This document shows, one piece after another, positions 7,898 through 46,519 of a DNA stretch of 64,000 nt (position 1 is its first letter; the number at the start of each line of letters is the position of its first letter). Source of the stretch: a virus (lineage: Duplodnaviria > Heunggongvirae > Uroviricota > Caudoviricetes); IMG/VR virus record IMGVR_UViG_2541047857_000009. One strand, 5' to 3'. The notes under the pieces were generated by a model. It had not been told where the DNA came from. It saw only the letters and a program-made list of their open reading frames with translations, and did no database searches. The translations under genes were made by a program, and so were the position numbers.

Positions 7898-8110
7898 CTA
7901 CAACTCATCACGAATCTGTGAGAGTGTGCTGATCGCCTGGTAATGACCGCGACGCTGCTCTTCTGTTTTGAACGCGCGCATATCGTCTTTTATCGATGCG
8001 ATTGCCTTATTCAGAACTTCCACTTGCGCTTCTTTAATCGCCTGTTTGCGTGGCTTCTGACGCTTCTTAGGAAGGTCTCTTAAACACGCCGGAATGTATG
8101 TCTGAGTCAT
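7898..8110 (-). CDS. small basic protein at the N-antiterminator position
   Basis: 70 aa, KKRQKPRK basic N-terminus; first gene leftward of OL; no nut sites found. Confidence 0.35.
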   Translation of the reverse strand: MTQTYIPACLRDLPKKRQKPRKQAIKEAQVEVLNKAIASIKDDMRAFKTEEQRRGHYQAISTLSQIRDEL

Positions 8111-8325
8111 AAAAAATCCTCTTGTGATTCAGCACAGCCCACTCAGCTTCGAATGGACTGGAATAAATCTTTTTTTCGCTTTGCCATAATTGCCGCTCTC
8201 CCTGAGCCCGCCTATGGTCCGACGCATGGTTTACTGTCGCGCCGTTCGACTGACCGAATCTCCACTTCGCCGCTGGCTAACTTCGCTCAGCTGTCGATGT
8301 TTCGTTTCGATGGGCTAACAATAGC

Positions 8326-8380
8326 TAAAGCGATTATTTCAGTCAATCGCCAAAACGATATTTATCATCGATAAAGTGAT
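8326..8380. promoter_or_regulatory. OL-like operator region
   Basis: GCGATT-N9-AATCGC and CGAT-N7-ATCG palindromes sharing the ATCGC half-site with OR. Confidence 0.4.
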
Positions 8381-8483
8381 AATTCATTGAATGTTAAAGC
8401 GATATTTTTTTTAAATGAAGTGGAAAAAAGTGATGTTGAAGGCGGTTTGATGGGAGCGAATTGGAGGTAGTAGATGGAGGTAT

Positions 8484-8506
8484 AAAAAAACCGGCTTTCG
8501 CCGGTT
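8484..8506 (-). terminator. rho-independent terminator ending the cI-lipoprotein operon
   Basis: CCGGC-tttc-GCCGG hairpin plus T7 on minus strand, 6 nt after lipoprotein stop. Confidence 0.65.
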
Positions 8507-8512
8507 GGTTAA

Positions 8513-8989
8513 TCAGTTGCAGTTAACTTTCCTGCCTACGAAGATCAAGTCTCCGTACTCGTCATTGGTATTCTTAAACCTAAGAACCTGTCCATTACGG
8601 ATAAAGGCCCAGTAGAGTTGCTTACCTGTGTATCCGCCATAAGAATTTTTTGCGTTCACGAAAACACACGTTGAGTAACCGTAAACAAAGTTCCTGTTCT
8701 CAACCATAACCTCTTTGCGGAGTGGAGAGAAGTCGCTGAATTTCGCGGAATCAGGATCCTTTAAGGCATCCTTGATTGTTTCCTGAACCAGCTCTTTATA
8801 GTTCTTTGGCTTTTCACCGACATCGGCTGTTTCAAGATTGATATTTCTAACCTTCTCGGCAAACTCGGCATCATGTTTTTTAGCCTCAGCCATCTTCTGA
8901 TCGTAATCAGAAGCAATACGGGCATAAGGTGGTTGCGCACACGCGCTGAGCAATGCAGAGGCGATAACTACAGCTGCTAATTTTTTCAT
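8513..8989 (-). CDS. lipoprotein (moron co-transcribed with cI)
   Basis: 158 aa; signal peptide with lipobox LLSAC; lower GC than flanks. Confidence 0.6.
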   Translation of the reverse strand: MKKLAAVVIASALLSACAQPPYARIASDYDQKMAEAKKHDAEFAEKVRNINLETADVGEKPKNYKELVQETIKDALKDPDSAKFSDFSPLRKEVMVENRNFVYGYSTCVFVNAKNSYGGYTGKQLYWAFIRNGQVLRFKNTNDEYGDLIFVGRKVNCN

Positions 8990-9024
8990 CTTCCCATCCC
9001 AGAGTAATTACTGTGTAAATTTTG

Positions 9025-9723
9025 TTATGCGAATCTTTTATAATCGACTGACTGTCTCAGCAGTACTTTAGCCATGACGTAGAACGCGTCCTCATCTTCA
9101 GGCTCGACGTACCATTTTTCGTAAATCGGGTTATCGGATATTACTGCCAGCCTGTCTCGCTGCATCTGCAGGCGCTTAACGTGCAGTGTCTTCCCAAATA
9201 CAAAGACGTATACACCGTCACCATCAAAGTGCGTAACACCGGTATCAACGAAGATCTGATCACCTGGTGAAATAGTGCCGTCCATGCTGTCACCATTAAC
9301 TGTGATCACTTTGACATGCGCAGCTGGACGATTGCCGAACAAGGCTCGCGCCTGCTCAGTCGTGTATTCAATGGCTCGGATAGTTTCAATGAAATCGCTG
9401 GTGACAATGCTGCCCGGCCCAGCGCTGGCTTTAACGTCGAGTACATCCACGCGGTAAATCCCATTCAGTGACGGCTTAACCTGGTATAGCGCAGACGGTT
9501 CTCTTGCGCTACTTGAAGCCATTTCCCCTTCACCAGTAGACAGCCACTCCGGCCGCACACCCAGAACAGAGGCAATCTCAACAGTTTTACGGGAGCCGTT
9601 CGCTTCCTTGAGTAGCTTATTGACGCTGGACTGAGCCATGCCGACATCTTTGGCTAACCGGCCCTGTGTATATCCAGCATATTTCATTGCCTGCGCCAGG
9701 CGCTCCGAGAATCCCATATTCAC
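9025..9723 (-). CDS. cI-like repressor (HTH + S24 LexA-like peptidase)
   Basis: N-terminal HTH; C-terminal VNGDSM serine and HVKRLQ lysine of Ser-Lys dyad. Confidence 0.8.
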   Translation of the reverse strand: MNMGFSERLAQAMKYAGYTQGRLAKDVGMAQSSVNKLLKEANGSRKTVEIASVLGVRPEWLSTGEGEMASSSAREPSALYQVKPSLNGIYRVDVLDVKASAGPGSIVTSDFIETIRAIEYTTEQARALFGNRPAAHVKVITVNGDSMDGTISPGDQIFVDTGVTHFDGDGVYVFVFGKTLHVKRLQMQRDRLAVISDNPIYEKWYVEPEDEDAFYVMAKVLLRQSVDYKRFA

Positions 9724-9748
9724 CTCTGTTAATGACTCCTTTAACTCT

Positions 9749-9790
9749 ATCGCTCAAGCGATTATTTAGCAAAAAATCGCCTATGCGATT
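9749..9790. promoter_or_regulatory. OR-like operators between cI and cro
   Basis: Perfect palindromes ATCGCTCAAGCGAT and AATCGC-CTAT-GCGATT. Confidence 0.5.
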
Positions 9791-9844
9791 GACATTCGCT
9801 AAAGTGATAACCATAATCGCTTTAAACTGATAGCTGAGGTGATT

Positions 9845-10096
9845 ATGAAGACCCCAACAGTAGAGAAGAACTCCGCAGTAGAGAAAGCGATTGCCATCGC
9901 TGGCAGCCAGAAAGAACTGGCAAAACGTTGCGGTAAAGCCCAGTCCACTATCTGCGACTGGCTTAACGGAAAGAAACGCATCTCCCCAGTTCACGTTCCT
10001 GAGCTGGTGAAAGCGGTTGGTGGTGAAATCCAGGCTCATGAATTCCGCCCGGACCTGCCTTCCATCTTTCCACACCCTGACAACCATGCCGCTTAA
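9845..10096 (+). CDS. Cro-like HTH regulator
   Basis: Divergent from cI; GSQKELAKRCGKAQSTICDWLNG HTH; GAGG RBS. Confidence 0.65.
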   Translation: MKTPTVEKNSAVEKAIAIAGSQKELAKRCGKAQSTICDWLNGKKRISPVHVPELVKAVGGEIQAHEFRPDLPSIFPHPDNHAA

Positions 10097-10125
10097 CGGC
10101 GGCCCTAACCACGAAAGGGAAAGCA

Positions 10126-10692
10126 ATGCATTCACTTGCGTATCAACAGAGTACCGGACTTGAACAACGTCCGTTGATTTCGATTTATCAAAGTGTTCCG
10201 CGTAATAACCGTAAGCTAACTCGAATACGGGAGGCAGTTAAGGCCTGGCAAAAAGCTACGCCGGGCCAGTCTCAGGTTCACATTTCTCAGCTGGTTGCGA
10301 AAGAGTGGCTGGCGCGCGGCGGGAAGGGGTTGTTACTGGCAGGTTCTGAACACAACACGAAGCAGAACTTCTTCCGGATGATTAACGATCCGGGCCCGAA
10401 GAACGACAAGGGGTTGATGCTACTGATCCCCGTCATTATCGACGTGATGGCGCGGGATAACGAGAAAGTGGCGAGAGAGTTCGGTCTGGTCGCAAAGACT
10501 GAGGCCGAACTGATAGCCGAGGCCATGAAAGAGTGCACTGAAGCGCATCAGGCGAAGTTACTTGGTCAGCCGATACAACGCCTTGAGAAAGAGGTGAGAG
10601 AAGCTGCTGAAGCACTTCTGCGCTTTCTGCCCACTGAATCAATCGCCGCGGTGGTGACAAGTCTGGCCGCTATGGCGCCGGGAGTTATGTGA
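10126..10692 (+). CDS. hypothetical regulator at the cII position
   Basis: 188-aa ORF immediately after cro. Confidence 0.35.
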   Translation: MHSLAYQQSTGLEQRPLISIYQSVPRNNRKLTRIREAVKAWQKATPGQSQVHISQLVAKEWLARGGKGLLLAGSEHNTKQNFFRMINDPGPKNDKGLMLLIPVIIDVMARDNEKVAREFGLVAKTEAELIAEAMKECTEAHQAKLLGQPIQRLEKEVREAAEALLRFLPTESIAAVVTSLAAMAPGVM

Positions 10693-10928
10693 TGGGAAGT
10701 ATCAAAAACGGCGAAAGCCAGTCTGCTCGAACAGAACTGGCCTTCAGATGCAAATCGTGTGCACTCATTGCAGGAGGAATAATGGCAAAAAATCCACGCT
10801 ATTACCATACCGCTGTACATAAAAACATAACCCGCGACCGCTTCATCCGCTCGGTTAACCCGATTGTGGCAGAGAAGATGCGCGCCATCCTGGAAGAACT
10901 GAAACGTAAGGAGAGTGGCCGTGGGTAA
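10689..10928 (+). CDS. hypothetical protein
   Basis: 79-aa ORF. Confidence 0.3.
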   Translation: MMGSIKNGESQSARTELAFRCKSCALIAGGIMAKNPRYYHTAVHKNITRDRFIRSVNPIVAEKMRAILEELKRKESGRG

Positions 10929-11820
10929 CGTATCCAATTTAGCCGAAGCCAGAGAGGCCAGAAGGCTCCAGAAACCGCGCACGAATGACGGTAAGGGGTT
11001 TGCCTTGCTGCACCGTAAAATTATGGATGTGCCGTTCTACAAGGACGCTGAGGCGGCTCATTTATGGGTTCACCTGCTCCTGCGCGCTAATCATGAACAG
11101 ACACTGGTATCGACTGATGTCGGCGATGTGATCTGCGAGCGCGGAGAGTTCATTACCGGGCGAAACACGCTGGCAATGGAAACGGGTTTGACCGCTGATC
11201 GCGTTAAATCACTGCTCCGTAAATTCCAGAACCTGGGCATGATCACCACCAAATCGAACAACCGTTTTACTGTTCTAAAAGTGGTCAAATATGACGAATA
11301 TCAGTCAAATTTTTGTCCAGCCGATGTCCAGCCAGTGTCCAGCGCAAACGCAGCTATATCAATGCCTGCGGAGGCGGAGTGTCCAGCCGATGTCCAGCCA
11401 GTGTCCACAGATAACAATATATTAAATAACTTACTACCTAACGGTAGTAAGTATGTCGCAAATGACCAGAAACCCGCTGAAGAGAAAAAGTCCCGTTTGT
11501 CATGCGATGAAGTATGGCAATGCCTGAAAGACGAACTGCCTGAAGCCCGGGGATGGAGATGCCTCACTGATGAGCGACGCAATCTGATCCGCACCTTCTG
11601 GGGTAAGGCTAACAAAATTGCCCGCAACCTGGACGGCAAGCCGATGGATATGGACGGTTTCAGAAGCTATCTGCGCTACATCGCTCAGAACTGCCGCTGG
11701 ATGCTTGAAGACCGACCAGACCAGAAATCCGGGAAGACCTGGCGCCGCATGAAATTCGATAAGTTCCTGACCGAAAAGCTCTACATCGAAGTGCGCGAAG
11801 GGGATCGTGATGACCGCTGA
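10915..11820 (+). CDS. replication initiator (lambda O-like) containing the origin
   Basis: AAGGAG RBS then GTG; iterons plus AT-rich inverted repeat inside the gene, as in lambda O. Confidence 0.6.
   Translation: MAVGNVSNLAEAREARRLQKPRTNDGKGFALLHRKIMDVPFYKDAEAAHLWVHLLLRANHEQTLVSTDVGDVICERGEFITGRNTLAMETGLTADRVKSLLRKFQNLGMITTKSNNRFTVLKVVKYDEYQSNFCPADVQPVSSANAAISMPAEAECPADVQPVSTDNNILNNLLPNGSKYVANDQKPAEEKKSRLSCDEVWQCLKDELPEARGWRCLTDERRNLIRTFWGKANKIARNLDGKPMDMDGFRSYLRYIAQNCRWMLEDRPDQKSGKTWRRMKFDKFLTEKLYIEVREGDRDDR
11314..11451. repeat. origin-like iterons (six 11-bp TGTCCAGCC repeats in two triplets) plus AT-rich inverted repeat
   Basis: Repeats at 11314, 11325, 11336, 11380, 11391, 11402; ACTTACTACC/GGTAGTAAGT inverted repeat 11428-11451. 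Confidence 0.65.
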
Positions 11821-16872: not shown

Positions 16873-17009
16873 AGCCAGAAGCGCTCGAGATAATCCGCAC
16901 TCGTTGGCAGCGACTCCGTATTTACCGCCGCCCTGGATCCGTGCTGGTTGACTACCGAATCCTTCGAAACTTCGTCCGCATTTATCATCAAGCAGGAGCC
17001 ACACAATGA
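16869..17009 (+). CDS. YlcG-like small protein
   Basis: 46-aa ORF, ATGA-coupled to rusA. Confidence 0.3.
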
Positions 17010-17695
17010 ACAGTCAGCAACTGGAATACGTACGTCAGCAGCTCATTGTGGCGACCGCCGATCTGAGCGGGGCGACGAAAGGCCAACTGGTAGCTTTCGC
17101 CGAGAACGCGCAATTCACCGCTACAGCGCGTAGCCGGGGCCGGAAGAAAGTTTATGATGTGCAGAAAAAGCGCATGGTTAACCCTGATAGTCCGCCGATG
17201 AGCGGCAGCCAGTCCCGCGCCAAGGGATCGTCAATCGCTCTGGTGTGCCCGGTAGAGTTCATGACAGCATCATGGCGCCGCGCTGTCTTGTCTCTTGACG
17301 ACCATCAGAAAGCGTGGCTGCTGTGGAACTACAGTGAGAACATCCGCTTCGAGTACCAGGTGGCGATCACCCATTGGGCGTGGTCAGAATTCCGGGAGCA
17401 ACTTGGCGCGAAGAAGGTGGCTGGCAAGACGATGGAGCGCCTGAAGAAGCTTATATGGCTGGCGGCGCAGGACGTTAAAGCGGAGCTGGCGGGGCGCGAG
17501 ACGTACGAATATCAGGCGCTGGCGGAACTAGCGGGTGTTGCAAAATCAACCTGGACAGAGACGTATCTGCCTCACTGGCTGGCAATGCGTAACAGCTTTA
17601 AGCGACTCGATAGCGGTGCGCTTATCTCAGTAACGCGATCACGTTCACAACAAAAGGCGACAAATTTGGATGTAAGTCTTGCAAAACCGAACTGA
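17006..17695 (+). CDS. putative late antiterminator (Q position)
   Basis: 229-aa ORF between nin genes and lysis cassette, followed by terminator-like hairpin; family not verified. Confidence 0.4.
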   Translation: MNSQQLEYVRQQLIVATADLSGATKGQLVAFAENAQFTATARSRGRKKVYDVQKKRMVNPDSPPMSGSQSRAKGSSIALVCPVEFMTASWRRAVLSLDDHQKAWLLWNYSENIRFEYQVAITHWAWSEFREQLGAKKVAGKTMERLKKLIWLAAQDVKAELAGRETYEYQALAELAGVAKSTWTETYLPHWLAMRNSFKRLDSGALISVTRSRSQQKATNLDVSLAKPN

Positions 17696-18382: not shown

Positions 18383-18784
18383 ATGTCTGAGACCTTCACT
18401 ATCGTAGGCGTTGGTCTTACATCGTCATCAGTCGGTGTAACCTTTGCCACGCTGTTTCCGGAGGCGACTCCAGCAGTGATGCTCGGATCACTCGCCGGAA
18501 CTGCGCTATACGTTCTGACCTCAGATCCCCATCAACTCTGGAAGCAGGCTATCTTTGCGCTGATATCGTTTATCAGTGGCGTGTTCTTCTCCGTACCCAT
18601 GGCGAAAATCATGGCCGGAATCATCAACACGCCGTTAAGCCTGATGAAGCCACCAGCCAGCATTGAGGTATCGCCAGCTGTCGGTGCAATTGTCACTGCT
18701 TCCATTTCCGTGGCAGTCCTGCTGCGTATTCTCCGCAAATCCAAAAGCGGGAAGATGCCGGGGCTGGGGGAGGAAGATAAATGA
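18383..18784 (+). CDS. holin-like membrane protein
   Basis: 133 aa with hydrophobic segments, first gene of lysis cassette. Confidence 0.5.
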   Translation: MSETFTIVGVGLTSSSVGVTFATLFPEATPAVMLGSLAGTALYVLTSDPHQLWKQAIFALISFISGVFFSVPMAKIMAGIINTPLSLMKPPASIEVSPAVGAIVTASISVAVLLRILRKSKSGKMPGLGEEDK

Positions 18785-19056
18785 CATGGCAGCTTCTTCT
18801 GATGGATGCAAACGCCATAGTTTGCCTGTTAATCATGGTCAGGCTGATGTTTTTCCGGAAAGAGGGAAAGCGTCATCGCCTGAGTGTCGCGGTGCTGGCC
18901 TACCTGGTCATACTTGCCGCCGGATTCAACGCCTTCAACATTCTGCTCGGCCACTACGTTCAGGTTAACCTTGGCGACCTGCTGCTGAACTCCGTCATAT
19001 GCATGGCGGTGTGGCTGGCGCGTGGGAACCTGGCGAAGGTCGTTATAACGGAGTAG
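18781..19056 (+). CDS. holin/antiholin-like membrane protein
   Basis: 91 aa, two to three TM segments, overlaps neighbours. Confidence 0.45.
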   Translation: MTWQLLLMDANAIVCLLIMVRLMFFRKEGKRHRLSVAVLAYLVILAAGFNAFNILLGHYVQVNLGDLLLNSVICMAVWLARGNLAKVVITE

Positions 19057-19059
19057 TCC

Positions 19060-19500
19060 ATGCAAACCAGCGAAAAGGGCATTGCCCTAATCAAAGAATT
19101 CGAAGGCTGTAGACTCACTGCTTACCAGGACAGCGTGGGCGTATGGACGATCGGCTATGGCTGGACTCAACCTGTGGATGGAAAACCAATCCGCGCCGGG
19201 ATGACTATCAAGCAGGAAACAGCAGAACGTCTGCTGAAGACCGGGCTGGTCAGCTATGAAAACGACGTGTCCCGCCTGGTTAAAGTCGGCTTGACTCAGG
19301 GGCAATTCGACGCCCTGGTGTCGTTCACGTATAACCTCGGCGCTCGGTCATTGTCGACATCGACACTCCTGCGAAAACTCAATGCCGGTGATTACGCTGG
19401 TGCTGCTGATGAGTTCCCGCGCTGGAACAAAGCAGGTGGCAAAGTCCTGAACGGGCTAACCCGTCGGCGTGAGGCGGAGCGCGCTCTGTTTCTGTCGTGA
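19060..19500 (+). CDS. endolysin (GH24 lysozyme)
   Basis: IKEFEGCRLTAYQD...WTIGYG catalytic region of T4/P22-type lysozymes. Confidence 0.8.
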   Translation: MQTSEKGIALIKEFEGCRLTAYQDSVGVWTIGYGWTQPVDGKPIRAGMTIKQETAERLLKTGLVSYENDVSRLVKVGLTQGQFDALVSFTYNLGARSLSTSTLLRKLNAGDYAGAADEFPRWNKAGGKVLNGLTRRREAERALFLS

Positions 19501-23725: not shown

Positions 23726-23959
23726 ATGCATAGCTTTGAGCACTTGGTTGCAGAAATAAGAGAAGAGTTAAGGCTTAGAGGGCTTGAGCATTCATCGCTA
23801 ATTTTTACTAAGCTTGCTCAGCAATACGCCCCTTACTATCAATCATTCGAACCTGAAAGAAAAGAGGCGTTACTGCTAAAGCTTAAGGCGCTTGAGAGAA
23901 GCGTGGGGCTACAGAAACCATTTGATTGGGAATCAGCCCTCTCAACGAAAAAAGAATAG
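23726..23959 (+). CDS. hypothetical protein (AT-rich insert)
   Basis: 77-aa low-GC ORF between terminase and portal. Confidence 0.35.
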   Translation: MHSFEHLVAEIREELRLRGLEHSSLIFTKLAQQYAPYYQSFEPERKEALLLKLKALERSVGLQKPFDWESALSTKKE

Positions 23960-24009
23960 GTCGCTCAGGCGGCCTTTTTTATTGCCATAAATCCACCACC
24001 GGACAATCC

Positions 24010-25359
24010 ATGAATGACAAATTAACTCTCGCCGTCAACCATGCGTTGAACGATGCGCGGATGGCTCGCGCCCGTATGGGGCTGATGGCGCCTACAATGG
24101 GGCTGGACAACAAGCGCCACTCTGCATGGTGCGAGTATGGATTCCCTGAGCAGGTAACCTACGAAAACCTTTATGCCCTGTACCGACGCGGTGGTATTGC
24201 CCACGGCGCAGTAGAGAAACTGGTGGGCAAGTGCTGGCAGACTAACCCGGAAATCATCGAGGGTGATCAGGCAGACAAAAAGCGCAAAGAAACCGCCTGG
24301 GAGAAAAAGGCCAAACAGGTATTCACCAACCGATTCTGGCGCTCATTCTCTGAGGCCGATCGCCGTCGTCTGGTGGGCCGTTATGCTGGCATCCTTCTGC
24401 ACGTCCGCGATGAAAAAGACTGGAACCTTCCGGTAACCAAAGGGCGAGGTCTTCAGAAAATATCGGTGGCGTGGGCAGGATCGCTTACGGTGAGCGAGTG
24501 GGACACTGGCCTGAACTCGAAGACGTACGGCCAGCCTCAGATGTGGCAGTACGCCGAACGCTTGCCGAATGGTTCAAGTCGCCGCGTCAATATCCACCCC
24601 GATCGCGTTTTCATCCTTGGTGATTACTCAGACGATGCTATTGGCTTCCTTGAGCCAGCTTATAACGCCTTTGTAAGCCTGGAGAAGGTAGAGGGTGGAT
24701 CCGGCGAGTCATTCCTGAAGAACGCCGCGCGCCAGCTTAATGTCAACTTTGAGAAGGAAATCGACTTCAACAATCTTGCGTCACTTTATGGCGTGAGCAT
24801 TGACGAGTTGCAGGATAAGTTTAACGAAGTTGCCGGGGAAATGAACCGTGGCAACGATGTTTTGATGACAACCCAAGGGGCCACGGTCACACCGCTGGTG
24901 ACTGCTGTAGCTGATCCTTCAGCGACCTATAACGTCAACCTGCAAACGGCTGCCGCCGGTGTTGATATCCCGACGCGCATTCTGGTTGGTAATCAGCAGG
25001 CCGAGCGCTCCAGCACCGAAGACCAGAAATACTTTAATGCTCGTTGTCAGTCGCGACGCGTAGACCTCTCTTTCGAAATAGAGGACTTCTGCGACAAGCT
25101 TATCGATCTACAAATCGTAGACTCAGTCAGTCAGAAGGCTGTTATCTGGGATGACCTTAACGAACAGACCGGTACTGAGAAGCTCACTAACGCCAAGACC
25201 ATGGGCGAAATTAACCAGACCATGCAGGGCAGCGGCGAAGAGCCAGCGTTCAGCCGTGAAGAGATTCGTACAGCTGCGGGTTATGACAATGACGACGAAG
25301 AGCCGTTAGGAGAAGAGGATGGCGACGAACAAGACGAAGCCACCAATTCTACCGCGTAA
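24010..25359 (+). CDS. portal protein
   Basis: 449-aa ORF after terminase; acidic C-terminus. Confidence 0.65.
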   Translation: MNDKLTLAVNHALNDARMARARMGLMAPTMGLDNKRHSAWCEYGFPEQVTYENLYALYRRGGIAHGAVEKLVGKCWQTNPEIIEGDQADKKRKETAWEKKAKQVFTNRFWRSFSEADRRRLVGRYAGILLHVRDEKDWNLPVTKGRGLQKISVAWAGSLTVSEWDTGLNSKTYGQPQMWQYAERLPNGSSRRVNIHPDRVFILGDYSDDAIGFLEPAYNAFVSLEKVEGGSGESFLKNAARQLNVNFEKEIDFNNLASLYGVSIDELQDKFNEVAGEMNRGNDVLMTTQGATVTPLVTAVADPSATYNVNLQTAAAGVDIPTRILVGNQQAERSSTEDQKYFNARCQSRRVDLSFEIEDFCDKLIDLQIVDSVSQKAVIWDDLNEQTGTEKLTNAKTMGEINQTMQGSGEEPAFSREEIRTAAGYDNDDEEPLGEEDGDEQDEATNSTA

Positions 25360-37257: not shown

Positions 37258-37636
37258 TTTTGCTCGGAAGGTGATCGGCGTGCCGTGGGCTAACCGGGCC
37301 TGCTCGTTCGATAGGGTCGACTGCTGGGGCTTGTGCGTGCTGTATTACCGGCACGTTCTCGGCATTGAACTGCACCAGACGCCGGACTACGAAGCCGGTG
37401 AGGACTTCTTCACCTGCTATCAAAGTGATGTCGTTTTCTGGCACCCGGTGGATAAGCCGGTCGAGGGCGGGATATTCGTCGGGTACCGCGGCGCGCAACC
37501 GGCGCATGTTGGCCTGGTACTGAACCGGCAGGCGCTGCACTCGCGCGGCGAGAACGGAAGCGTACGCATGGACTCGTTGCTGGTCATTCAGCGGGCATTC
37601 ACCAAAGTGGAGTTTTTCGAATATGGCGCTGGTTGA
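37220..37636 (+). CDS. tail protein with NlpC/P60-like peptidase motif (K-like)
   Basis: 138 aa with DCWG cysteine motif. Confidence 0.5.
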   Translation: MTQRNIPACSTSDFARKVIGVPWANRACSFDRVDCWGLCVLYYRHVLGIELHQTPDYEAGEDFFTCYQSDVVFWHPVDKPVEGGIFVGYRGAQPAHVGLVLNRQALHSRGENGSVRMDSLLVIQRAFTKVEFFEYGAG

Positions 37637-40100
37637 GATATCGAATTTTCCAGGAACGCCTAAGCTGCGTTGCAGGGTGCCAAACGGCACCCTTTTTTAT
37701 GACTGGCTGGCGGCCAATGATGGTAACTTTCACCGCGATCTGCTGATCGTCCGCAACGGCGTAAAGTTGGGCGAAGATGATGAGCTGGCGTTTGAGCTAT
37801 GCGAACTGGACACCGTCCAGATATTCGACCAGCCGAAGGGCATCATTGGCGACATTCTCAGCCCGATCTTCAAAGTTGTCGGCGCGGTATTCTCTTTCCT
37901 TGCGCCAAAGCCGGCGATCGCCAATACAGGCGGCAACACGATTGACTCGCCAAACAATAGCCTGACCGGCCAGACGAATACGGCGCGCGTCTACAAAGCA
38001 AAACCGGACATCTACGGACAAATCCGTTCGTTCCCGGACCTGATTCAGGAGTCGCTTTTCGAATACGTGCGCCAGAGCGACACGGATGGCGGCCTGAAGT
38101 ACGTTACTGAGTGGATGTGCATCGGGATCGGCAAATATGATTACGAGTCTGTGCGTTATTCAGAGTCCAGCCTAGGAAGTATGGCCGGTGCAGAGTTCCA
38201 GTTTTACCAGCCGGGTGAAGTGATCCCTACCATCAACGAAGGCTACGGGTTCGACGACGTGGATGGCCAGGAAGTGCCCGGGCAAAACGAATCGGATAAT
38301 TTCCCGATCGAGACTGCTACGGCTACTACGGTTGTGAGCGGAACTTACTCCGGCGGGCAGATTGCGGTAAAAATTATCAAGCAGGCTGAGTTTGATTACT
38401 TCATGGGCCTGGTCCTGCCGCACGCCGTTACTTTTACGATTAACGTCACCTACAGCACGCCAACCGGCAACGTAACGCAGGATGTCGATTTCTCCGGCAC
38501 GCTGATATCGGCTGTCGAAACAAACGACGGCGCGGTGGTTAACCCGGTCCGGTGGTACACATTCACGATGAGGGATCTAATTGGCCCTCCTGACGTGCCG
38601 GCAACGGCGACTATTAACACGACGAAGTTCATCCTTAACGATAACGAAGCGCTAGTGGTAGGCCCGTTCTTCTCGCCGGTCGAATCTGCCCAGTTATGGC
38701 TGCACACTCAGGTGCAGCTGGGCGGCAAAAAGTCCGCTGACTGGAAGGTCACGATCTGGAAAATTGACGATTACTACAACCAGGTGCCGGGTACTCAGCA
38801 GACGTTCACGTATCATCAGGGGACGCCGCACAAATCATCGAGCGAAGTATTTTACCGTACCGATAAGCTGACGCCGACCGGCGGTTTCGGCAAGTACGCT
38901 ATTAACTTCCAGCGCACAGATAACTCGAGTGATGCCTCTATCCTGAAGGTTGAGGAGATCCACTCGGTCAACGTCAGAACCAACGTCGTGCATCCAACCG
39001 ATACGCTGGTGCGCGTGAAGGTAAGGGCGACGGAGAACGCCCTGGGCAGCCGTGACCGCAAGTACAACGCACTGGTGACGCGTCAGACCATCAGTTACAA
39101 CCTGACGACGCAATCGGTGGATTACACCCTGCGGGCCTCGCGCTCGTTCGCTGATGCAGTGGCGCATACCTGGCTGATTATGGGCGAGCAGCCGGTAAGT
39201 AGCATTGACCTGTACGGGCTGTACTCGATTGCCGAAAGTCTGCCGGATGAGCGCCTGGGTTACTTCGACTACACGTTTGACGACGAGAACGATTCGTTGG
39301 GCGACAGGGTGCAGGCTATCTGCAATGCGGCCTCTGTCATTGCGTACTGGGACGATGGCGTGCTGACGTTTACTCGCGATCAGAAGGTTGAGTACCCGGC
39401 GGCCGTATTCAACCGGGCCAACATGAAGACGGACGAGTACAAAATGACGTACGAGGCCACTCTTCCTGGCGGTTACGACGGCGTGCAGGTGTCCTATGTT
39501 CACCCGACCACGAACAACAAGACGTACATCAACTATCGCGTGCTGAACGGCGCCATTGTCGAACAGGAAGCGCAGAACCCGAACAAGCTCGAGATTGTCG
39601 GCTTCCGTAACGAGTATCAGGCGCGTGAGCGCGCGCTGCGAGAAACCAAACGCCTGATTTACTCACGCGTGAATATGAACGCAAAAGTGTTCGAGGACGG
39701 CATTATCCAGGTCGGTAGCGTCATTCAGATGCCCGACATCTACGACAGCAACCAGCAACAGGGTTACATCACCGGGCGCGCCGGTAATAACTTTGATACC
39801 AGCGAGCCGATCACGTTTACCGGTTCGATGTATGTGCTGGTGACAGACAGCCTGGGTAACCCGACGCTGCGCTATCCAGCGGCGGCGCGTGGCGACACGA
39901 AGTACGGATTCACCGCGGCTATCCCAAACATTCAGCTCAATATCTGGAACGGAGACACTGTGCAGCTCCCGTCGCGCTATCTCATTGCGACAGAGGAGGA
40001 ACTGGACAGCCAGCTATGGACGGTCAACAGCATCAAACCGAACACAGATAACACGGTATCTCTGACAGTCGCGGAATACAGCGACGCCATCTACGAATAA
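37623..40100 (+). CDS. tail tip / host-specificity protein (J-like)
   Basis: 825-aa ORF in distal-tail position. Confidence 0.6.
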   Translation: MALVEISNFPGTPKLRCRVPNGTLFYDWLAANDGNFHRDLLIVRNGVKLGEDDELAFELCELDTVQIFDQPKGIIGDILSPIFKVVGAVFSFLAPKPAIANTGGNTIDSPNNSLTGQTNTARVYKAKPDIYGQIRSFPDLIQESLFEYVRQSDTDGGLKYVTEWMCIGIGKYDYESVRYSESSLGSMAGAEFQFYQPGEVIPTINEGYGFDDVDGQEVPGQNESDNFPIETATATTVVSGTYSGGQIAVKIIKQAEFDYFMGLVLPHAVTFTINVTYSTPTGNVTQDVDFSGTLISAVETNDGAVVNPVRWYTFTMRDLIGPPDVPATATINTTKFILNDNEALVVGPFFSPVESAQLWLHTQVQLGGKKSADWKVTIWKIDDYYNQVPGTQQTFTYHQGTPHKSSSEVFYRTDKLTPTGGFGKYAINFQRTDNSSDASILKVEEIHSVNVRTNVVHPTDTLVRVKVRATENALGSRDRKYNALVTRQTISYNLTTQSVDYTLRASRSFADAVAHTWLIMGEQPVSSIDLYGLYSIAESLPDERLGYFDYTFDDENDSLGDRVQAICNAASVIAYWDDGVLTFTRDQKVEYPAAVFNRANMKTDEYKMTYEATLPGGYDGVQVSYVHPTTNNKTYINYRVLNGAIVEQEAQNPNKLEIVGFRNEYQARERALRETKRLIYSRVNMNAKVFEDGIIQVGSVIQMPDIYDSNQQQGYITGRAGNNFDTSEPITFTGSMYVLVTDSLGNPTLRYPAAARGDTKYGFTAAIPNIQLNIWNGDTVQLPSRYLIATEEELDSQLWTVNSIKPNTDNTVSLTVAEYSDAIYE

Positions 40101-40122
40101 GAACCGTCCCCGACAAACCTAA

Positions 40123-40147
40123 CCCGGCCATCGCGCCGGGTTTTTTT
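40123..40147 (+). terminator. rho-independent terminator between tail-tip gene and tail fibre gene
   Basis: CCCGGC-catcgc-GCCGGG plus T7. Confidence 0.65.
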
Positions 40148-40158
40148 ATGGAATAAAT

Positions 40159-42741
40159 ATGGCCACTACACCTACTAATCTGCCAGTACCTAGCGAATCC
40201 CCGCGCGACCTGAAATTTAACGCAGGGAAAATTGATGAGTTCGTGACTTCATTCGCTCTTAGTTATATTGACCGCTTTGGAGATGAACACTACACGATTG
40301 AAGGATTAAGATGGCTTGCACAGCGGGCTATAGCTGAATTTGGATGGATACCTATCGGGACATTTCAGAGCGGCGCTGTTATAACTCTACCAAATCAAAT
40401 ATTAAAAGATGAAAATGATGGAGAATACTATAGATGGGATGGGCCGCTTCCTAAAATCGTTTCTCCTAATTCAACACCTGATAGTGCCGGGGGAATAGGT
40501 AAAGGCAAATGGATAGGTGTAGGCGATGCCAGCTTACGTAGTGCTATTACTGAGACAACGAAAAAATACACTACATTTACAGACGCCATCAATTCTACTA
40601 TTGATCTAGTTATCGGGTGCGTTATTACTGGTGGAAGAGTTTCCATCAATGACGGAGGTGGCGGCATATACGTCAGGAACGGAACTGGCACGGCAGGAGA
40701 TACAGATGGAGGAAGTTACTTTGTTACCCCTGATGGGTCAAGGTTTGACTTAGTATCACCTGCAAATATTTCAACTTTTGGCGGCGTTCCTGGGCATGAC
40801 TACCGTGCTGCTCTTGACGGTATAAAATCGTATGTTTCAACAAGAGATAAGGTAATTAGAATTAATTCTAAAACTATTGTTAGTATGGTATTTACACCAG
40901 AGATTCCTGCTGGATACTGGAATGGATTCATACTTGACGTAGATGATAGCGTGACAATTAATACCGCAAGCGATGAAGCTGTCAAATCACCATTGGTAAA
41001 ACTTGTCAGACCTGTAAAATTCTTTTTTACTGGTAATAGCACCAGTTATTTATTACGTTCAAGTGTTGGAATTACAAAAGGTGAATATACACCACTTGTT
41101 CCAGGTACATTACCAACTCCGCCGATCATAAAAAATGCAAACTACACAGATAATAAAACGTTATTTTGTGATATTCAGGATAAAGAAACTCCGGTCTTGA
41201 CGGTTTTTACCTCTGGATGGTCTTTTCTGTCAGGTGTATGGCCTATGGGTGTTGTTGCGGATACACCTGCAGCGTCACTGGCTGGGGATGCAGTATCAAT
41301 TCCAGCCCCTACAGGGAATCTTGTTTTTGCTGCATACAGCAGAGTGAAGCCGTGCTCTGAATATTTCTTGTCGATGTATGAGGGTGACAACACCGGTGGT
41401 CTGCCATGCGTTGTGGTTGAAGCTGAAAGTATGCGTTGGATCTATTACGAGGATCATTTTGGACATGGTAATTTAATTGAGGGAACAATTGGCGGAGCAT
41501 ACTCTACAAAAAGCATTGCATATGCTGGATCTGATACTCATGCTTCACAATGGCTAAAAAACAGTATTGCATCCGTTCGTGTTGATACGCTTAAGTCATT
41601 CACTATCCTGGTTAACGGGATAGAGCGAGTTACAATTCGTCAAACCGGGAGAATCATTGGTCGTGTAGGATTTGGATCACTTGGCGATGGCGGTAAGTAT
41701 ATGTCTGTCTTCTATCCATACATTATCGAAAATCGACAATACCGCTCTGCAAAACCGATAAATATCGCTGTTGTAGGCGATTCAATCACTGATGCCTCTA
41801 TGGGAAATGGATGGGTACAGTTCGCGCAACAAGCACTAGAAGGAACTCACGGCATTCGCGTTGGACGTATGCAGACAATTGCAATAAATGGGTATGCATC
41901 AGGAGATATCGCTAATATATTTAATGTCACATCGTTGGATGATATCGATGTAGTGCTTTTCCAAATCGGAGTGAATGATATTCAAAGGCAATCCGGACGA
42001 GAGGCATTACGAAATAACGTTAAGCAGATGATGCTGACTGCAAATAACCTTGGGATTCCCTGCATTGTATCTTTGCCTACACAGTTCTATACCAGAGATC
42101 AGAGTGTTACGTTAACCGGGGTTGCTGGTTATGGACAGCCTTCGGCAAATTACGAGCTTGGGGCGCTTTACAGGGCGATACTTGCCAGCACAGTAGCTGT
42201 TCGTAATACAGAGGTTAATCAGCCGCTTAATGCCCTGAATACTGGTTCTCTTGACGATCTCGGACCAATCGTAGCCGAATATCTCCTGACAAATCAGGAC
42301 CCTGTTGTTATGGACAACATTCACCCGACCACATACGGAAGAATTCTTCTCGGCTTGTCAAATGCCAGAGCTATTGCATCACATATGTTCGGTAGACGTA
42401 ATGATCCTATAATTAACCACTGGATGCCAGGTGCGTGGGGGGCAAATAACTGGTCAGTAACTTCACTGGTTCGTGCTGCTGTAACATCATATCCCGATGG
42501 TAAAATTGCATTAACTGGCACTATCGCTAACATCGGAACAGGTATAACCGCCGACGGTACGACAGTATGCAACCTTCCGTTGAGCATCTCGCCAGTTAGG
42601 AAAATGGCATTTTCTGTTACAAAACTTGATGCAAGTGGCCTCCCTATTGGACAGGGTAATATTGTTATTGATACAAATGGAACTGTTAAAATATACGGAT
42701 TTCAAACGGGGAATGTGTCACTAGACGGGGTGTTATATTGA
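40159..42741 (+). CDS. tail fibre/tailspike with C-terminal SGNH (GDSL) esterase domain
   Basis: 860 aa; SGNH blocks IAVVGDSITD, QIGVNDI and DNIHPT; low GC. Confidence 0.65.
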   Translation: MATTPTNLPVPSESPRDLKFNAGKIDEFVTSFALSYIDRFGDEHYTIEGLRWLAQRAIAEFGWIPIGTFQSGAVITLPNQILKDENDGEYYRWDGPLPKIVSPNSTPDSAGGIGKGKWIGVGDASLRSAITETTKKYTTFTDAINSTIDLVIGCVITGGRVSINDGGGGIYVRNGTGTAGDTDGGSYFVTPDGSRFDLVSPANISTFGGVPGHDYRAALDGIKSYVSTRDKVIRINSKTIVSMVFTPEIPAGYWNGFILDVDDSVTINTASDEAVKSPLVKLVRPVKFFFTGNSTSYLLRSSVGITKGEYTPLVPGTLPTPPIIKNANYTDNKTLFCDIQDKETPVLTVFTSGWSFLSGVWPMGVVADTPAASLAGDAVSIPAPTGNLVFAAYSRVKPCSEYFLSMYEGDNTGGLPCVVVEAESMRWIYYEDHFGHGNLIEGTIGGAYSTKSIAYAGSDTHASQWLKNSIASVRVDTLKSFTILVNGIERVTIRQTGRIIGRVGFGSLGDGGKYMSVFYPYIIENRQYRSAKPINIAVVGDSITDASMGNGWVQFAQQALEGTHGIRVGRMQTIAINGYASGDIANIFNVTSLDDIDVVLFQIGVNDIQRQSGREALRNNVKQMMLTANNLGIPCIVSLPTQFYTRDQSVTLTGVAGYGQPSANYELGALYRAILASTVAVRNTEVNQPLNALNTGSLDDLGPIVAEYLLTNQDPVVMDNIHPTTYGRILLGLSNARAIASHMFGRRNDPIINHWMPGAWGANNWSVTSLVRAAVTSYPDGKIALTGTIANIGTGITADGTTVCNLPLSISPVRKMAFSVTKLDASGLPIGQGNIVIDTNGTVKIYGFQTGNVSLDGVLY

Positions 42742-42777
42742 AGGTAAGGGGTGATAAAACACCCCTATTTTATTGCA

Positions 42778-43863
42778 CTAAATAAAACGCCTTGTAAATT
42801 TTGCTATTTTTTTCTCAATCAACGAGTGAACTAAGCACCCTGTAATAATGCTAAATAACACATAAAAAGCAAGGTACATAAATACACTGGTATGCAGATG
42901 TAGTTCCAGTCGCTCCCACCAGTGCGCAAGCAATGATGTAAATAAGCCATGTATGAGGTATATGCAGTACGAAGCATTACCTAAGTAAACTAATATATTC
43001 GGAGTCTTTACTTTACCCTCAAGGCTAATTGTTGCCCATACGATGTAAAAAGAAAACGCTCCCCATATAAGAGGTCTGTGCCATAAGTTCCCTACATACG
43101 TAGTTATTAAATATTTTTCAAGGATATAAAATAAAGGCAACGAACAAATCAATATAGCAGTAGCAAGTTTGGCGTTAAGAAATATTTTTGATATGTACAG
43201 TCTGTACATAAACATACCCAAAGCAAACTCAATCATTACTGGCTGAGAGATTACCTCAATTGGAGGGAAATACGCTTTAATAAAATTTGCGGCATGCTCG
43301 TTTTTAACTAAAATGTTACAAACGATAACTATTGTCACAAATGAAATTTCTATTTTCTCTATTTTTGAAACGCCAATTGCAATAAAAATAGCGAAGATAG
43401 CATAAAAGAAAAATTCAAACTGAAGAGTCCACCCAACACCTAGTATTGGTCCCTTATCCCAATGGGTGAACGTTATGCTCCTAAAAAAATACACTAAATC
43501 TATTTTATCAGATGGAAACCAAAAAAGTAACGGTCTTGCTGGGGAGGTGATTTGGTATGAAACCAAATAAGAGACATAAACAGCACATGCCGTAAGGATA
43601 ATATATAAAGGAAGTATCCTAACCAATCTTCTTAAAAAGAACTTTGCCGCTGAAATATTAAATGGCCCATCAGCTTTTTTACCTCCATAAGCAATAAAAG
43701 GCATTATAAACCCACTAATTATAAAAAATATATCAACACCTATACCACCAAGGCCTGACATCCTTATTCCATACATTACAATCTCAGAATGTGCAATGAC
43801 GACAATCAATGCGGCAAAGAAGCGCAATACCTGTATGTTATAAATTGTTTGTTTGTTATCCAT
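42778..43863 (-). CDS. acyltransferase family 3 (OafA/OatA-like) integral membrane protein
   Basis: 361 aa, about 10 TM helices, N-terminal LRFFAALIVVIAHS motif; AT-rich; convergent with tail fibre. Confidence 0.7.
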   Translation of the reverse strand: MDNKQTIYNIQVLRFFAALIVVIAHSEIVMYGIRMSGLGGIGVDIFFIISGFIMPFIAYGGKKADGPFNISAAKFFLRRLVRILPLYIILTACAVYVSYLVSYQITSPARPLLFWFPSDKIDLVYFFRSITFTHWDKGPILGVGWTLQFEFFFYAIFAIFIAIGVSKIEKIEISFVTIVIVCNILVKNEHAANFIKAYFPPIEVISQPVMIEFALGMFMYRLYISKIFLNAKLATAILICSLPLFYILEKYLITTYVGNLWHRPLIWGAFSFYIVWATISLEGKVKTPNILVYLGNASYCIYLIHGLFTSLLAHWWERLELHLHTSVFMYLAFYVLFSIITGCLVHSLIEKKIAKFTRRFI

Positions 43864-44177
43864 TTTTTAATAATTGGTAATTACGTGCTTAAGGTTCCAA
43901 AAGATTCCAGTTATTCACTGGGGCTGTAAGATTTTAACATCAATGCTTGATGGTTGACACACTGAATGCAGTTTAATATTTAATAACAACAAAATAATAA
44001 CCAACTGTAATTAGCATGCTATAAATAACGTTGAAGATTACATCTCATGCTTCTATATCGCAGTAAAGTCAACATAGATTAACTTCTGCTTTTCCATCCA
44101 CAACTTTATCTCAAGCTACAACAACAAGTTGCATGCTAACTATTTCACGGTACTTGATGTGCGCTCTGTAAGAGTAG

Positions 44178-44197
44178 TACTGTATGTATAAACAGTA
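44178..44197. promoter_or_regulatory. LexA (SOS) box upstream of umuD'
   Basis: TACTGTATGTATAAACAGTA fits CTGT-N8-ACAG. Confidence 0.8.
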
Positions 44198-44215
44198 TTT
44201 ATGGGAGTGCAAATC

Positions 44216-44587
44216 ATGGAGTCCCAATTCCCCGCAGCAGATTATGCAGTAGAGCGTATCTCACTGGACGGCAGGATCATTACAAGCCCAGCGTCGACAT
44301 ATTTGATGCTGGCAGCAGAGACTATCTGGCGCGCAGGCATTATGAAAGATGCAATGCTTGTCGTGGACAGCGCTGTACATCCCATTGATGGTTCTATTAT
44401 CGTATGCCAGTTCAACGGTGAACTTCGTCTTAAGCGCTTGAGGTTAGCTCCTGCTCGATGCCTTGAAGATCTTAACTATCCAGACCGGCATCAGATGCTG
44501 ACGTCTGAAACTCTCATTATGGGAGTTGTGACATATATCATCAACGATGCCCGTAGTGGTGAGTTTGACGACAGCCCGGTGATCTGA
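44216..44587 (+). CDS. umuD: UmuD'-like protein lacking N-terminal cleavage segment and catalytic Ser
   Basis: Aligns with UmuD from about residue 26; GDSM replaced by ETIW; Lys retained (LKRLRL); GGGAG RBS. Confidence 0.65.
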
Positions 44588-45855
44588 TGTTTGCCCTGGT
44601 TGATGTAAATTCATTTTATGCGAGTTGTGAGACGGTATTCAGGCCTGACCTGAAAGGAAAACCGGTTGTTGTGCTGTCGAATAACGATGGCTGCGTGATT
44701 GCGCGCTCTGCTGAAGCGAAACTGCTCGGCGTCAAAATGGGTGACCCGTACTTCAAACAGAAAGACCTGTTCACGCGGTGCGGAGTTGTCTGCTTCAGCA
44801 GCAATTACGAGCTCTATGCGGACATGTCCAACCGGGTGATGACAACGCTCGAAGAGATGTCGCCGCGCTGCGAAATATACTCAATAGACGAGGCTTTCTG
44901 TGACCTTACCGGGGTTCGTAATTGCAGAGTTCTGGAAGACTTTGGACAGGAACTAAAGGACGCTGTATACCGTAACACGCGGCTTGCTGTCGGCGTTGGG
45001 ATAGGGCAGACAAAGACACTGGCGAAACTGGCAAATCATGCTGCAAAACGATGGCAGCACAAGACAGGTGGAGTTGTTGACCTGTCTAACGTCGAGCGTC
45101 AGCGCAAACTGATGGCAGCACTTCCTGTTGATGAGACATGGGGAGTGGGCCGGCGCATTACCAAAAAGCTCGAGGCTATGGGGATCAAGACGGTTCTCGA
45201 CCTGGCTGATACTGACATACGATTTATTCGTAAACATTTTAATGTGGTTTTGGAAAGGACTGTGCGTGAGCTGCGAGGAGAGCAGTGTCTAGAACTGGAA
45301 GAGTTTGCACCCGTAAAACAAGAGATTGTATGTAGCCGCTCATTCGGCGAACGAGTCACTGAATACGATGCAATGCGGCAGGCTATCTGTAGCTACGCGT
45401 CGCGAGCAGCGGAGAAGTTGCGTGGAGAGCATCAGTATTGCCGGTTTATCTCTGCGTTCGTCAAAACGTCACCATTCGCGCTTAATGAGCCATATTACGG
45501 TAACAGCGCATCGGTGAAGTTGCTGACACCGACGCAAGATAGCCGGGACATCATTGCGGCGGCCACTAAGTGCCTTGATGCTATATGGAAAGATGGTCAC
45601 CGATACCAGAAAGCGGGCGTGATGCTCGGAGACTTCTTCAGTCAGGGCGTCGCACAACTTAACCTGTTTGATGACAATGCACCTCGCGTCGGAAGTGAGA
45701 AGCTGATGGAAGTTCTGGATCAACTCAACACTAAAGGCGGGAGAGGTACGCTGTATTTTGCAGGGCAGGGCATCCAGCAGCAGTGGGCGATGAAACGAGA
45801 AATGCTTTCGCCGCGGTACACAACAAGATTTTCCGATCTGCTGCGCGTTAAGTAA
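44587..45855 (+). CDS. umuC: UmuC, Y-family translesion DNA polymerase subunit
   Basis: 422 aa; [15 protein letters not shown]...SIDEAF Y-family signature; ATGA-coupled to umuD'. Confidence 0.85.
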
Positions 45856-46519
45856 CGAGTTCAATCAACTCCGGCCCCTGATTTTTCACATTACCAACGG
45901 AGCGCGTCACGGCGTGCCAGATAAACTTGTCGGCGGAAACCGCTCCGTCGGCTGCTATCTCTTCCGCTTCTTTCCCGCCTATATCCTGGCGCATCCACTC
46001 ACGGGCCGCTTCAGGTGACAGAACAAGCGGCCGTCTGTCGTGAATGTCGACCAGTCCTTTATCAGCTGCAGATGTCACTATCAGAAAGCCCTCAGCGTCA
46101 TCACCGCGCTCAAATGGCGTGCTGCCTATAGCTGCCATAAAGATTGGCTGACCGTCGGCACGGTGAATGAAGTAGGGCTGTTTCTTGTCGCCTTCCTTTT
46201 TCCATTCGAACCAGCCATCAGCAAAGCAGATCGCCCGGCCATGTTGCCAGAGAGGTTTGAACATTCGGCTGGTGGCTGCGGTTTCGACGCGTGAGTTAAT
46301 CAGCGGCGGTTTATCCCACCACCCGGGAGCGTATCCCCAGAACACTGGATCGAGATGCAGCTGCTCGTCGCGTTCGCTCAGCAGCAGAACTTTGGTGCCT
46401 GGCGCAACGTTGTAGCGTCCAATCGGCTCCGGGTCGTACGCGATGTCGCGATCGGCTTCATCCGCCAGGTAAGCCAGGTATTCTTCACGCGTTTGAGCTT
46501 GTGCAAAACGTCCACACAT
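45848..46519 (-). CDS. SOS response-associated peptidase (SRAP/YedK family)
   Basis: 223 aa starting MCGR with catalytic Cys2; 3' end overlaps umuC by 8 bp. Confidence 0.75.

Follow-up and report, generated by a model that had tools for sequence, protein, structure and literature searches.

A predicted O-antigen deacetylase tailspike and a convergent acyltransferase gene as a two-gene prophage cassette of Escherichia coli

The 64,000-nucleotide stretch of DNA analysed here (IMG/VR virus record IMGVR_UViG_2541047857_000009; hereafter, the window) is E. coli chromosome that contains a prophage, and at the right end of this prophage two genes converge, one for a tailspike, i.e., a receptor-binding protein, with a predicted SGNH esterase domain (40159..42741, + strand, 860 aa) and one for a membrane O-acyltransferase of the AT3 family (42778..43863, - strand, 361 aa). 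We found that the two genes recur together in several genera, forming what is, to judge by sequence comparison, a horizontally mobile two-gene cassette, and that the receptor part of the tailspike occurs in E. coli strictly in genomes with one O-antigen gene cluster, the S88 variant of O45. The reading that we favour, with moderate confidence, is that the tailspike binds O-antigen of the O45-S88 type and removes an acetyl group written by the host, while the AT3 protein (hereafter, AT3), made in lysogens, attaches a different acyl group. What was observed, and what this reading is built on, are the domain identities, the intact catalytic motifs, a cassette conserved across contexts and a receptor part found strictly together with the O-antigen cluster. 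An earlier reading of the region, made from the sequence only, had proposed that the phage both recognises or removes and writes an acetyl mark on the surface polysaccharide of its host; how its parts fared is reported below with the results that bear on them.

Tailspike domains and predicted esterase site

The tailspike gene lies directly 3' of the TipJ tail-tip gene (37623-40100), which has a terminator at its end, and its product matches phrog_13362, a PHROGs family annotated as function unknown, over its full length (E = 0). The N-terminal module (aa 1-133, up to a GDASLRSAI linker; 40159..40557, + strand) is a virion anchor. It matches PDB 9occ_G gp13, a phage tail protein of solved structure (E 6.6e-45), holds the Pfam domain Tail_spike_N (PF18668) at residues 68-123 (E 8e-17), and is more weakly similar, over aa ~60-133 only, to CBA120 TSP1/3/4 and G7C gp63.1 (phmmer aligns aa 63-132 with gp63.1). 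The anchor is exchangeable, in that homologues join the same receptor part (aa 134-860) to P22 head-binding, T7 tail-fibre or other N-termini. As in deacetylating tailspikes, an N-terminus for virion attachment goes together with a place among the tail genes, here 3' of TipJ.

Within the receptor part, a putative carbohydrate-binding beta-sandwich domain (aa ~345-525; 41191..41733, + strand; AlphaFold 2 (AF2) pLDDT mostly 75-94) stands ahead of the SGNH esterase domain (aa ~533-745; 41755..42393, + strand), which is followed by a C-terminal beta-rich domain (aa ~750-860; 42406..42738, + strand), recognised by its secondary structure (pLDDT ~73-88) and kept in distant relatives. Pfam detected Lipase_GDSL_2 (PF13472) at residues 538-689 with 36.9 bits against a cut-off of 32.9. 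The elements that define the SGNH superfamily (GDS in block I, Gly in block II, GxND in block III, DxxH in block V) are present as GDSIT (aa 540-544, nt 41776-41790, with S542 as the nucleophile), G578, GVND (aa 604-607, nt 41968-41979) and DNIH (D719-x-x-H722, aa 719-722, nt 42313-42324), and the predicted fold is the three-layer alpha/beta/alpha, flavodoxin-like fold of the superfamily. Residues G540, D541, S542, G578, G604, N606, D607, D719 and H722 were invariant in 15 homologues with identity down to 25%. The anchor, the Pfam match and these invariant residues bear out the earlier description of a tail fibre with an SGNH esterase domain. That description had put the SGNH blocks at the C-terminus of the fibre; all three motifs that it named are present, but the domain is internal, with the beta-rich aa 750-860 coming after it.

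The structure of the tailspike was modelled with AF2 at full length (pLDDT 63.6, a poor model) and then for aa 345-860 (pLDDT 74), the second model superseding the first. Foldseek returned two-domain matches to the CE2 esterase 2waa, YxiM (2o14) and SsfX3 (3skv). The SGNH domain could conceivably be something other than a deacetylase, i.e., a binding or structural module, or a lipase or transferase that acts on something else. We regard this as very unlikely, considering that the catalytic and oxyanion residues remain invariant down to 25% identity, that the best fold matches of the domain are carbohydrate acetyl-esterases, that an extracellular acetyl donor for a transferase does not exist, and that neither Pfam nor the AF2 models showed a beta-helix glycanase domain as the source of another activity.

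The close family of the tailspike is very small, a single cluster at 50% identity, and is surrounded by ~280 remote relatives (25-35% identity) that have the length of a tailspike and the same beta-sandwich/SGNH/C-terminal module. For the receptor part, no sequence relative was found in the PDB or among GTDB representative genomes, and tblastn against 50,697 phage records gave only partial matches at 25-30% identity, with neither G7C nor PP99 matched. The tailspike/AT3 region had no DNA match among cultured phages and none among plasmids, and NCBIfam matched neither protein. The similarity seen in cultured phages was to unannotated proteins of Aeromonas phages phiA014S, phiA014L and ST21 and of Enterobacter phages vB_Ecl_SABI and SonariX; these matches, from phages of Aeromonas hydrophila and Enterobacter cloacae, cover aa ~440-850 of the receptor part at 25-30% identity. 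The 6-deoxytalose of A. hydrophila O:34 is acetylated. This sugar has a side-chain position in the O:34 antigen (PMC6989608), and it is a possibility that the tailspike and the Aeromonas phage proteins have a specificity for acetylated 6-deoxytalose in common.

The AT3 acyltransferase

The AT3 gene converges on the tailspike gene, the two stop codons being 36 nt apart, and GC content, 55.2% in the TipJ gene, is only 43.2% in the tailspike gene and lower still, at 34.5%, in the AT3 gene; in its two open reading frames, their convergence and their low GC the sequence-only reading was accurate. The Pfam domain Acyl_transf_3 (PF01757) spans aa 7-342 of the 361-aa protein (E 1e-25, 91 bits against a cut-off of 31), and phrog_3333, annotated as 'O-acetyltransferase', matches it with E 7e-63. 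A hydropathy scan showed hydrophobic segments along the whole length. The motifs found were R14-X10-H25, FFIISG (46-51), R79-x-x-R82 (as R79-L-V-R82), W145...E150 and H305; in 82 homologues, R14-X10-H25 and R79-x-x-R82 were kept in 100% and all motif residues in 98-100%. The R/K-X10-H motif in TM1 and the RXXR motif in the first cytoplasmic loop are essential in both Oac and OafA (PMC9558356).

In domain span, multi-pass character and motifs the protein agrees with Oac-type AT3 proteins, and its sequence assigns it to this single-domain type. It is not OafA-like, as had been proposed, since the AT3 domain stands alone in 361 aa, whereas OafA carries a C-terminal periplasmic SGNH fusion (PMC9558356). 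The sole SGNH domain near AT3 is that of the virion tailspike, on the opposite strand. The broader proposal, a membrane acyltransferase converging on the fibre gene, agrees with the Pfam identity and with the usual position of lysogenic-conversion genes. Compared by sequence, AT3 had no match in the PDB, and among cultured phages its matches were weak (the best, to Yersinia phage YeP1-3, at 28%), with no BLAST-level similarity to Sf6 Oac. Prompted by the finding that the receptor part is 69-86% identical between genera, we also compared AT3 with WecH, the O-acetyltransferase of enterobacterial common antigen (ECA); the BLASTP match (E 0.027) was confined to the common N-terminal AT3 motif, and a WecH-like identity was rejected.

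A conserved and exchanged gene pair

The convergent arrangement of tailspike and AT3 genes around a short hairpin spacer recurs in at least seven other genomic contexts in four genera. In E. coli it was found in an argW prophage of strain L73 and at further loci, one of them a prophage remnant; in a P22-like prophage of Morganella, where the receptor part sits on a P22 head-binding N-terminus, and in a siphovirus-like prophage of the same genus; in Proteus mirabilis; as a remnant in Buttiauxella sp. A111; and on IMG/VR contigs. Since the pair recurs in this way, its adjacency is not due to chance. The cassette region of the window is 100% identical in E. coli strains XJ5.2 and 20A24.

Two lineages of AT3 could be told apart. 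In lineage A (L73, Morganella, Proteus and other E. coli), AT3 identity co-diverges with that of the tailspike, the values for the pair being 91% and 85-86% between L73 and Morganella, and 74% and 71% between L73 and Proteus. Since the two genes are kept as a cassette and co-diverge, they are functionally linked, and to this extent the earlier idea that esterase and acyltransferase belong together stands. Lineage B consists of the AT3 proteins of the window and of Buttiauxella, which are 85% identical to each other. The window protein is only 52-55% identical to lineage A, although its receptor part is 90% identical to that of L73; since so different an AT3 stands beside so similar a receptor part, AT3 has been swapped at least once, with the DNA homology break at the end of the tailspike gene.

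The receptor part is also found alone. On a lytic T7-like contig it is joined to a T7 tail-fibre N-terminus, with AT3 absent, and E. coli prophage YZLc4-1 has it without an adjacent AT3; at the DNA level, neither AT3 lineage was found anywhere in the YZLc4-1 genome. Decay of single members of the pair was seen as well. At one Proteus locus (8584-9846 of the retrieved locus) AT3 is frameshifted and the tailspike intact, and in Buttiauxella (9130-11770 of the retrieved locus) the tailspike is split into three open reading frames while AT3 is intact, beside IS and SRAP remnants.

Association with the S88-variant O45 O-antigen cluster

To assign a receptor, 5426 complete E. coli genomes were searched with megablast and sensitive blastn. 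Both search modes found the receptor part in exactly 7 of them, and all seven carriers were among the 37 genomes that have the S88-variant O45 cluster (hypergeometric P = 3.8e-16, or 1.8e-9 if four independent acquisitions are assumed). The carriers represent five tailspike alleles (100 to 83.5% identity) and at least three integration sites. The O-antigen locus of 20A24 has the gene order galF-rfbB-rfbC-(Tll-like reductase)-GT-wzx ('S88 variant O45')-GT2-wzy-(hexapeptide acetyltransferase)-rfbA-gnd, i.e., the cluster contains rml genes, a Tll-like reductase, two glycosyltransferases and a hexapeptide-repeat acetyltransferase, and no fnl genes. The tailspike is thus strictly associated, at the genome level, with a single O-antigen cluster that encodes an acetyltransferase. 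Both AT3 lineages, too, were confined to hosts with an O45-S88-type cluster (six E. coli genomes and Buttiauxella), and a 48%-identical AT3 beside a Mu-type fibre occurred in other O types only.

The Wzy protein of the cluster has just four relatives outside E. coli among 5.8 billion proteins, namely in P. mirabilis (78%), in Buttiauxella sp. A111 (69%) and on two unassigned contigs (one at 57%). In Buttiauxella sp. A111, the Wzy relative and the cassette remnant are on the same contig. The clusters of E. coli 20A24 (2440-8653 of the retrieved locus), P. mirabilis and Buttiauxella are syntenic, with 61-92% aa identity gene by gene, the acetyltransferase included. The spread of the receptor part across genera can therefore be explained by an O-antigen cluster common to these genera. 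The core of the S88-variant O45 cluster has 28-34% GC, and the cluster has the look of a rare O-antigen type that moves between genera. A paper on Proteus serotyping does not include it.

Concerning the structure of the polymer, Jann and colleagues are said to have described, in 1995, an O45-related polymer with GlcNAc in place of FucNAc, in which 2-O-acetyl-6-deoxytalose is kept. Such a polymer would agree with the gene content of the cluster, i.e., the rml genes, Tll-like reductase, two glycosyltransferases and acetyltransferase, and the absence of fnl genes. The canonical O45 unit consists of FucNAc, 2-O-acetyl-6-deoxytalose and Glc (PMC12093740). Where the sequence-only reading had left the target as 'LPS or capsule', the association in 7 of 7 E. 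coli genomes narrows it to O-antigen, probably of the S88-variant O45 type.

These data also bear on the possibility that the two genes are unrelated neighbours, with AT3 a generic moron acting on a different glycan of the envelope (capsule, ECA, colanic acid or core) and adjacent to the tailspike only because prophages collect cargo close to the attachment site, where the late operon ends. AT3 proteins do modify many different glycans (PMC9558356), but the protein of the cassette is not WecH-like, and both of its lineages are restricted to hosts of the O45-S88 type. Relatives beside unrelated Mu-type fibres in other O types, the lower GC of AT3 (34.5% against 43.2%) and its exchange independently of the tailspike would all suit a passenger gene; conservation of spacing, orientation and inter-gene hairpin, together with co-divergence, would not. 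Moreover, the Buttiauxella prophage has decayed yet kept AT3 intact, in a host with the matching O-antigen cluster. Taken together, we find a chance neighbourhood of this kind quite improbable.

Transcription of the cassette

Ahead of the tailspike gene lies an intrinsic terminator, AACCCGGC-CATCGC-GCCGGGTT followed by seven T residues (40121..40149, + strand), with its hairpin at 40121-40142 (8-bp stem with 6 GC pairs, centroid -14.5 kcal/mol) and with 16 nt between its T-run and the tailspike ATG. The strong terminator that had been noted at the end of the tail-tip gene was seen here as well. A hairpin and T-run with unrelated stem sequences stand at the equivalent place ahead of the tailspike in five other prophage contexts, one of them P22-like, which suggests that the terminator ahead of the cassette is a selected insulator, crossed by antiterminated late transcription alone. 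An Rfam search of 39500-44600 gave just one match, a sub-threshold chance match over the terminator.

No promoter-like site was found on the + strand in 39800-40158. Since the 16-nt gap behind the terminator leaves no room for a promoter and none was predicted upstream, the tailspike gene is not an independent transcription unit, contrary to the earlier view that it is transcriptionally separate; it needs read-through. The prophage encodes a late-gene antiterminator Q of 229 aa (17006..17695, + strand; Pfam PF06323, E 1e-83), and the tailspike gene is probably read through the upstream terminator by Q antitermination.

Between the convergent stop codons lies a GC-rich hairpin (42747..42766; z-scores -2.4 and -2.8) that is terminator-like on the + strand, where ATTTTATT comes after it, and whose T tail on the - strand is weaker. 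Equivalent hairpins are present in the cassettes of E. coli L73, Morganella, Proteus and Buttiauxella. On the - strand, a promoter-like site of AT3 (GTGTCA-18-TAAAAT with an extended -10 TG; 43931..43960), a consensus match only, lies ~70 nt upstream of the ATG, and the TGTTAAAAT element is also found upstream of the 85%-identical AT3 of Buttiauxella. From this site AT3 would be expressed in the lysogen. A hairpin in the 5' leader of AT3 (43907-43921) was considered as a regulatory element and rejected, as it was no better than shuffled sequence (z -0.27).

A model of cassette function and its rivals

In the model that we propose, the exchangeable anchor (aa 1-133) would fix the late-expressed tailspike to the tail tip, the gene being transcribed only when a Q-modified late transcript crosses the upstream terminator. 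The receptor part (aa 134-860) would recognise the S88-variant O45 O-antigen, made by a cluster of the three-sugar type with a 6-deoxytalose-type reductase, and by stripping host-made O-acetyl groups the tailspike would allow the virion to work its way down to the outer membrane, in the manner of G7C gp63.1 and PP99 gp55. The former is an essential deacetylase, and hosts deficient in acetylation are resistant (PMC10743462); the latter deacetylates 6-deoxytalose that is randomly acetylated at several positions (PMC6989608). The Oac-type AT3 would be made in the lysogen from its own promoter and would acylate the same O-antigen in the periplasm at another position. A resident phage would in this way alter its own receptor, with superinfection exclusion, fewer progeny lost on debris and a serotype shift as the expected results, as for Sf6 Oac, BTP1 GtrC and PhiV10. 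The AT3 conversion genes of Sf6 and BTP1 block the phage's own tailspike (PMC9558356).

Several points weigh against this model. Three of its steps are ones that we infer, namely removal of acetyl groups from the O-antigen, the acceptor used by AT3 and the resulting block, and acetylation of the S88-variant O45 polymer is deduced from gene content and from canonical O45. The two AT3 lineages, only 52-55% identical beside receptor parts that are 90% identical, may differ in what they do. In E. coli with other O types, relatives of AT3 (48-63% identity) are found next to Mu-type tail fibres that are unrelated, so that adjacency to a fibre gene is partly generic. The E. coli hosts may in part be clones of one another; the tie between Proteus and the O-antigen cluster is at the species level only, and for the Morganella hosts of the cassette no tie to the cluster was established. 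Finally, the AF2 models are only moderate in confidence (pLDDT 64 and 74).

The two enzymes might alternatively write and erase one and the same mark, AT3 adding exactly the acetyl group that the esterase removes, as the sequence-only reading had it. The receptor of a lysogen could then be crossed only with a matching esterase, or the esterase could have evolved against AT3-based exclusion by relatives. Such a scheme is consistent with joint inheritance and co-divergence in lineage A and with retention of the pair in four genera and two virion types, and SGNH tailspikes can be loose as to position (e.g., PP99 gp55 on randomly acetylated 6-deoxytalose). However, the phage must infect hosts without its AT3; the O-antigen cluster already supplies an acetyltransferase; the receptor part occurs with no AT3 beside it both in the YZLc4-1 prophage and in the genome of a lytic T7-like phage; and AT3 has been replaced by a 55%-identical protein while the tailspike remained almost unchanged. 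We consider it unlikely, then, that one mark is both written and erased.

Somewhat less likely again is a private receptor, in which the acyl group added by AT3 would exclude other O45-specific phages and could be stripped by the phage's own esterase alone or, equivalently, in which the esterase would counter AT3-based superinfection exclusion. If this were true, kin phages alone would cross the modified O-antigen, progeny would not be trapped on debris, and the swap of AT3 lineages beside a nearly unchanged tailspike would represent one round of an arms race. We favour, instead, removal of a host-written acetyl group by the tailspike and addition of a different acyl group by AT3, as set out above.

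The surrounding prophage

The prophage is lambdoid and has tail genes of the siphovirus type (integrase ... Q, lysis, terminase, capsid, tape measure, NlpC/P60, TipJ), and its right end adjoins the host genes yciB/yciC/ompW/trp. Past AT3 follow genes for a UmuD-like S24 peptidase (44201-44587, + strand), a UmuC-like Y-family polymerase (44587-45855, + strand) and, convergent with the polymerase gene, a SRAP (YedK-like) protein (45848-46519, - strand), and then host genes. A near-consensus LexA box, TACTGTATGTATAAACAGTA, lies at 44178-44197, directly upstream of the peptidase gene; the box and these three genes make up a cargo module for SOS mutagenesis beside yciB, where the prophage has its right end.

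Two further observations concern other parts of the prophage. The gene in the position of the portal in the head module (~23926-25359, + strand; 3911-5260 of the retrieved locus) is labelled 'anti-CBASS protein Acb1 family protein' in RefSeq, and this label may reflect a misannotated portal or a fused function. At the place where the window has its Q protein of 229 aa (PF06323), 20A24 has a different Q, of 167 aa (18619-19119 of the retrieved locus). Since Q differs although the cassette is 100% identical, the two prophages are mosaic in the region of the early/late switch, and the window probably represents the form found in XJ5.2.

Relation to known systems and significance

We compared the tailspike with gp63.1 (PDB 4QNL), by which the N4-like coliphage G7C deacetylates O-antigen, with gp55 of Pectobacterium phage PP99 and with the petal domain of epsilon15 gp20. 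In gp63.1 the anchor alone is similar in sequence; the receptor parts show no sequence homology and are alike at the level of the fold only. By analogy, the tailspike probably works like gp63.1, but for want of this homology it belongs to a separate SGNH lineage. It also differs from gp63.1 in its domain order (beta-sandwich, SGNH, C-terminal beta), which resembles that of CE2-type two-domain esterases, in the phage that bears it, temperate and siphovirus-type where G7C is lytic and podovirus-type, and in its coupling to an acyltransferase gene.

AT3, for its part, is similar to Sf6 Oac, BTP1 GtrC, PhiV10 and Kapi1 hyp24 (PMC9558356; Kapi1 preprint) in having R-X10-H and RXXR motifs and in lying directly after the tailspike gene at the prophage end. 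As in the Sf6 Oac group, it is on a transcription unit of its own, and by analogy its expected role would be to acylate the O-antigen receptor of its own phage in lysogens. In that group, however, the tailspikes are glycanases, and the acetyl group blocks them sterically, whereas here the tailspike itself is a predicted acetyl-esterase. GtrC/OafB-type proteins have a fused SGNH domain, which the AT3 of the window is without.

In Klebsiella, receptor-binding proteins of prophages with SGNH esterase domains are described as serotype-specific determinants of host range, with prophage acetyltransferases in the same genomes (PLoS Biol 2026, PMC13123978). The specificities there concern capsule K types, whereas the specificity proposed here is for an O-antigen type common to several genera, and an adjacent, co-diverging esterase/AT3 cassette is not described in the text searched.

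Esterase tailspikes, prophage AT3 proteins and the layout of a tailspike followed by AT3 (Sf6, Kapi1 hyp24) are already known. What is new is the combination of an esterase tailspike and AT3 in one conserved cassette, low in GC and bounded by terminators, which spreads among phage backbones through swaps of its N-terminal adaptor, the swap of AT3 lineages, and the sharp assignment to one O-antigen type common to E. coli, Proteus and Buttiauxella. In the literature searched we found no description of a conserved, co-diverging cassette that pairs an acetyl eraser on the virion with an acyl writer in the lysogen.

The cassette offers a clean system for the study of O-acetyl marks as a receptor code for phages. 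The O-antigen concerned belongs to the neonatal-meningitis clone type O45:K1:H7 (strain S88), and the results suggest that the tailspike could serve as a specific probe or typing reagent for S88-variant O45. Prophage AT3 proteins may in turn alter O45 serology, which is a warning for typing. Finally, the natural swaps of N-terminal adaptors among siphovirus, P22-like and T7-like virions could guide the engineering of receptor-binding proteins.

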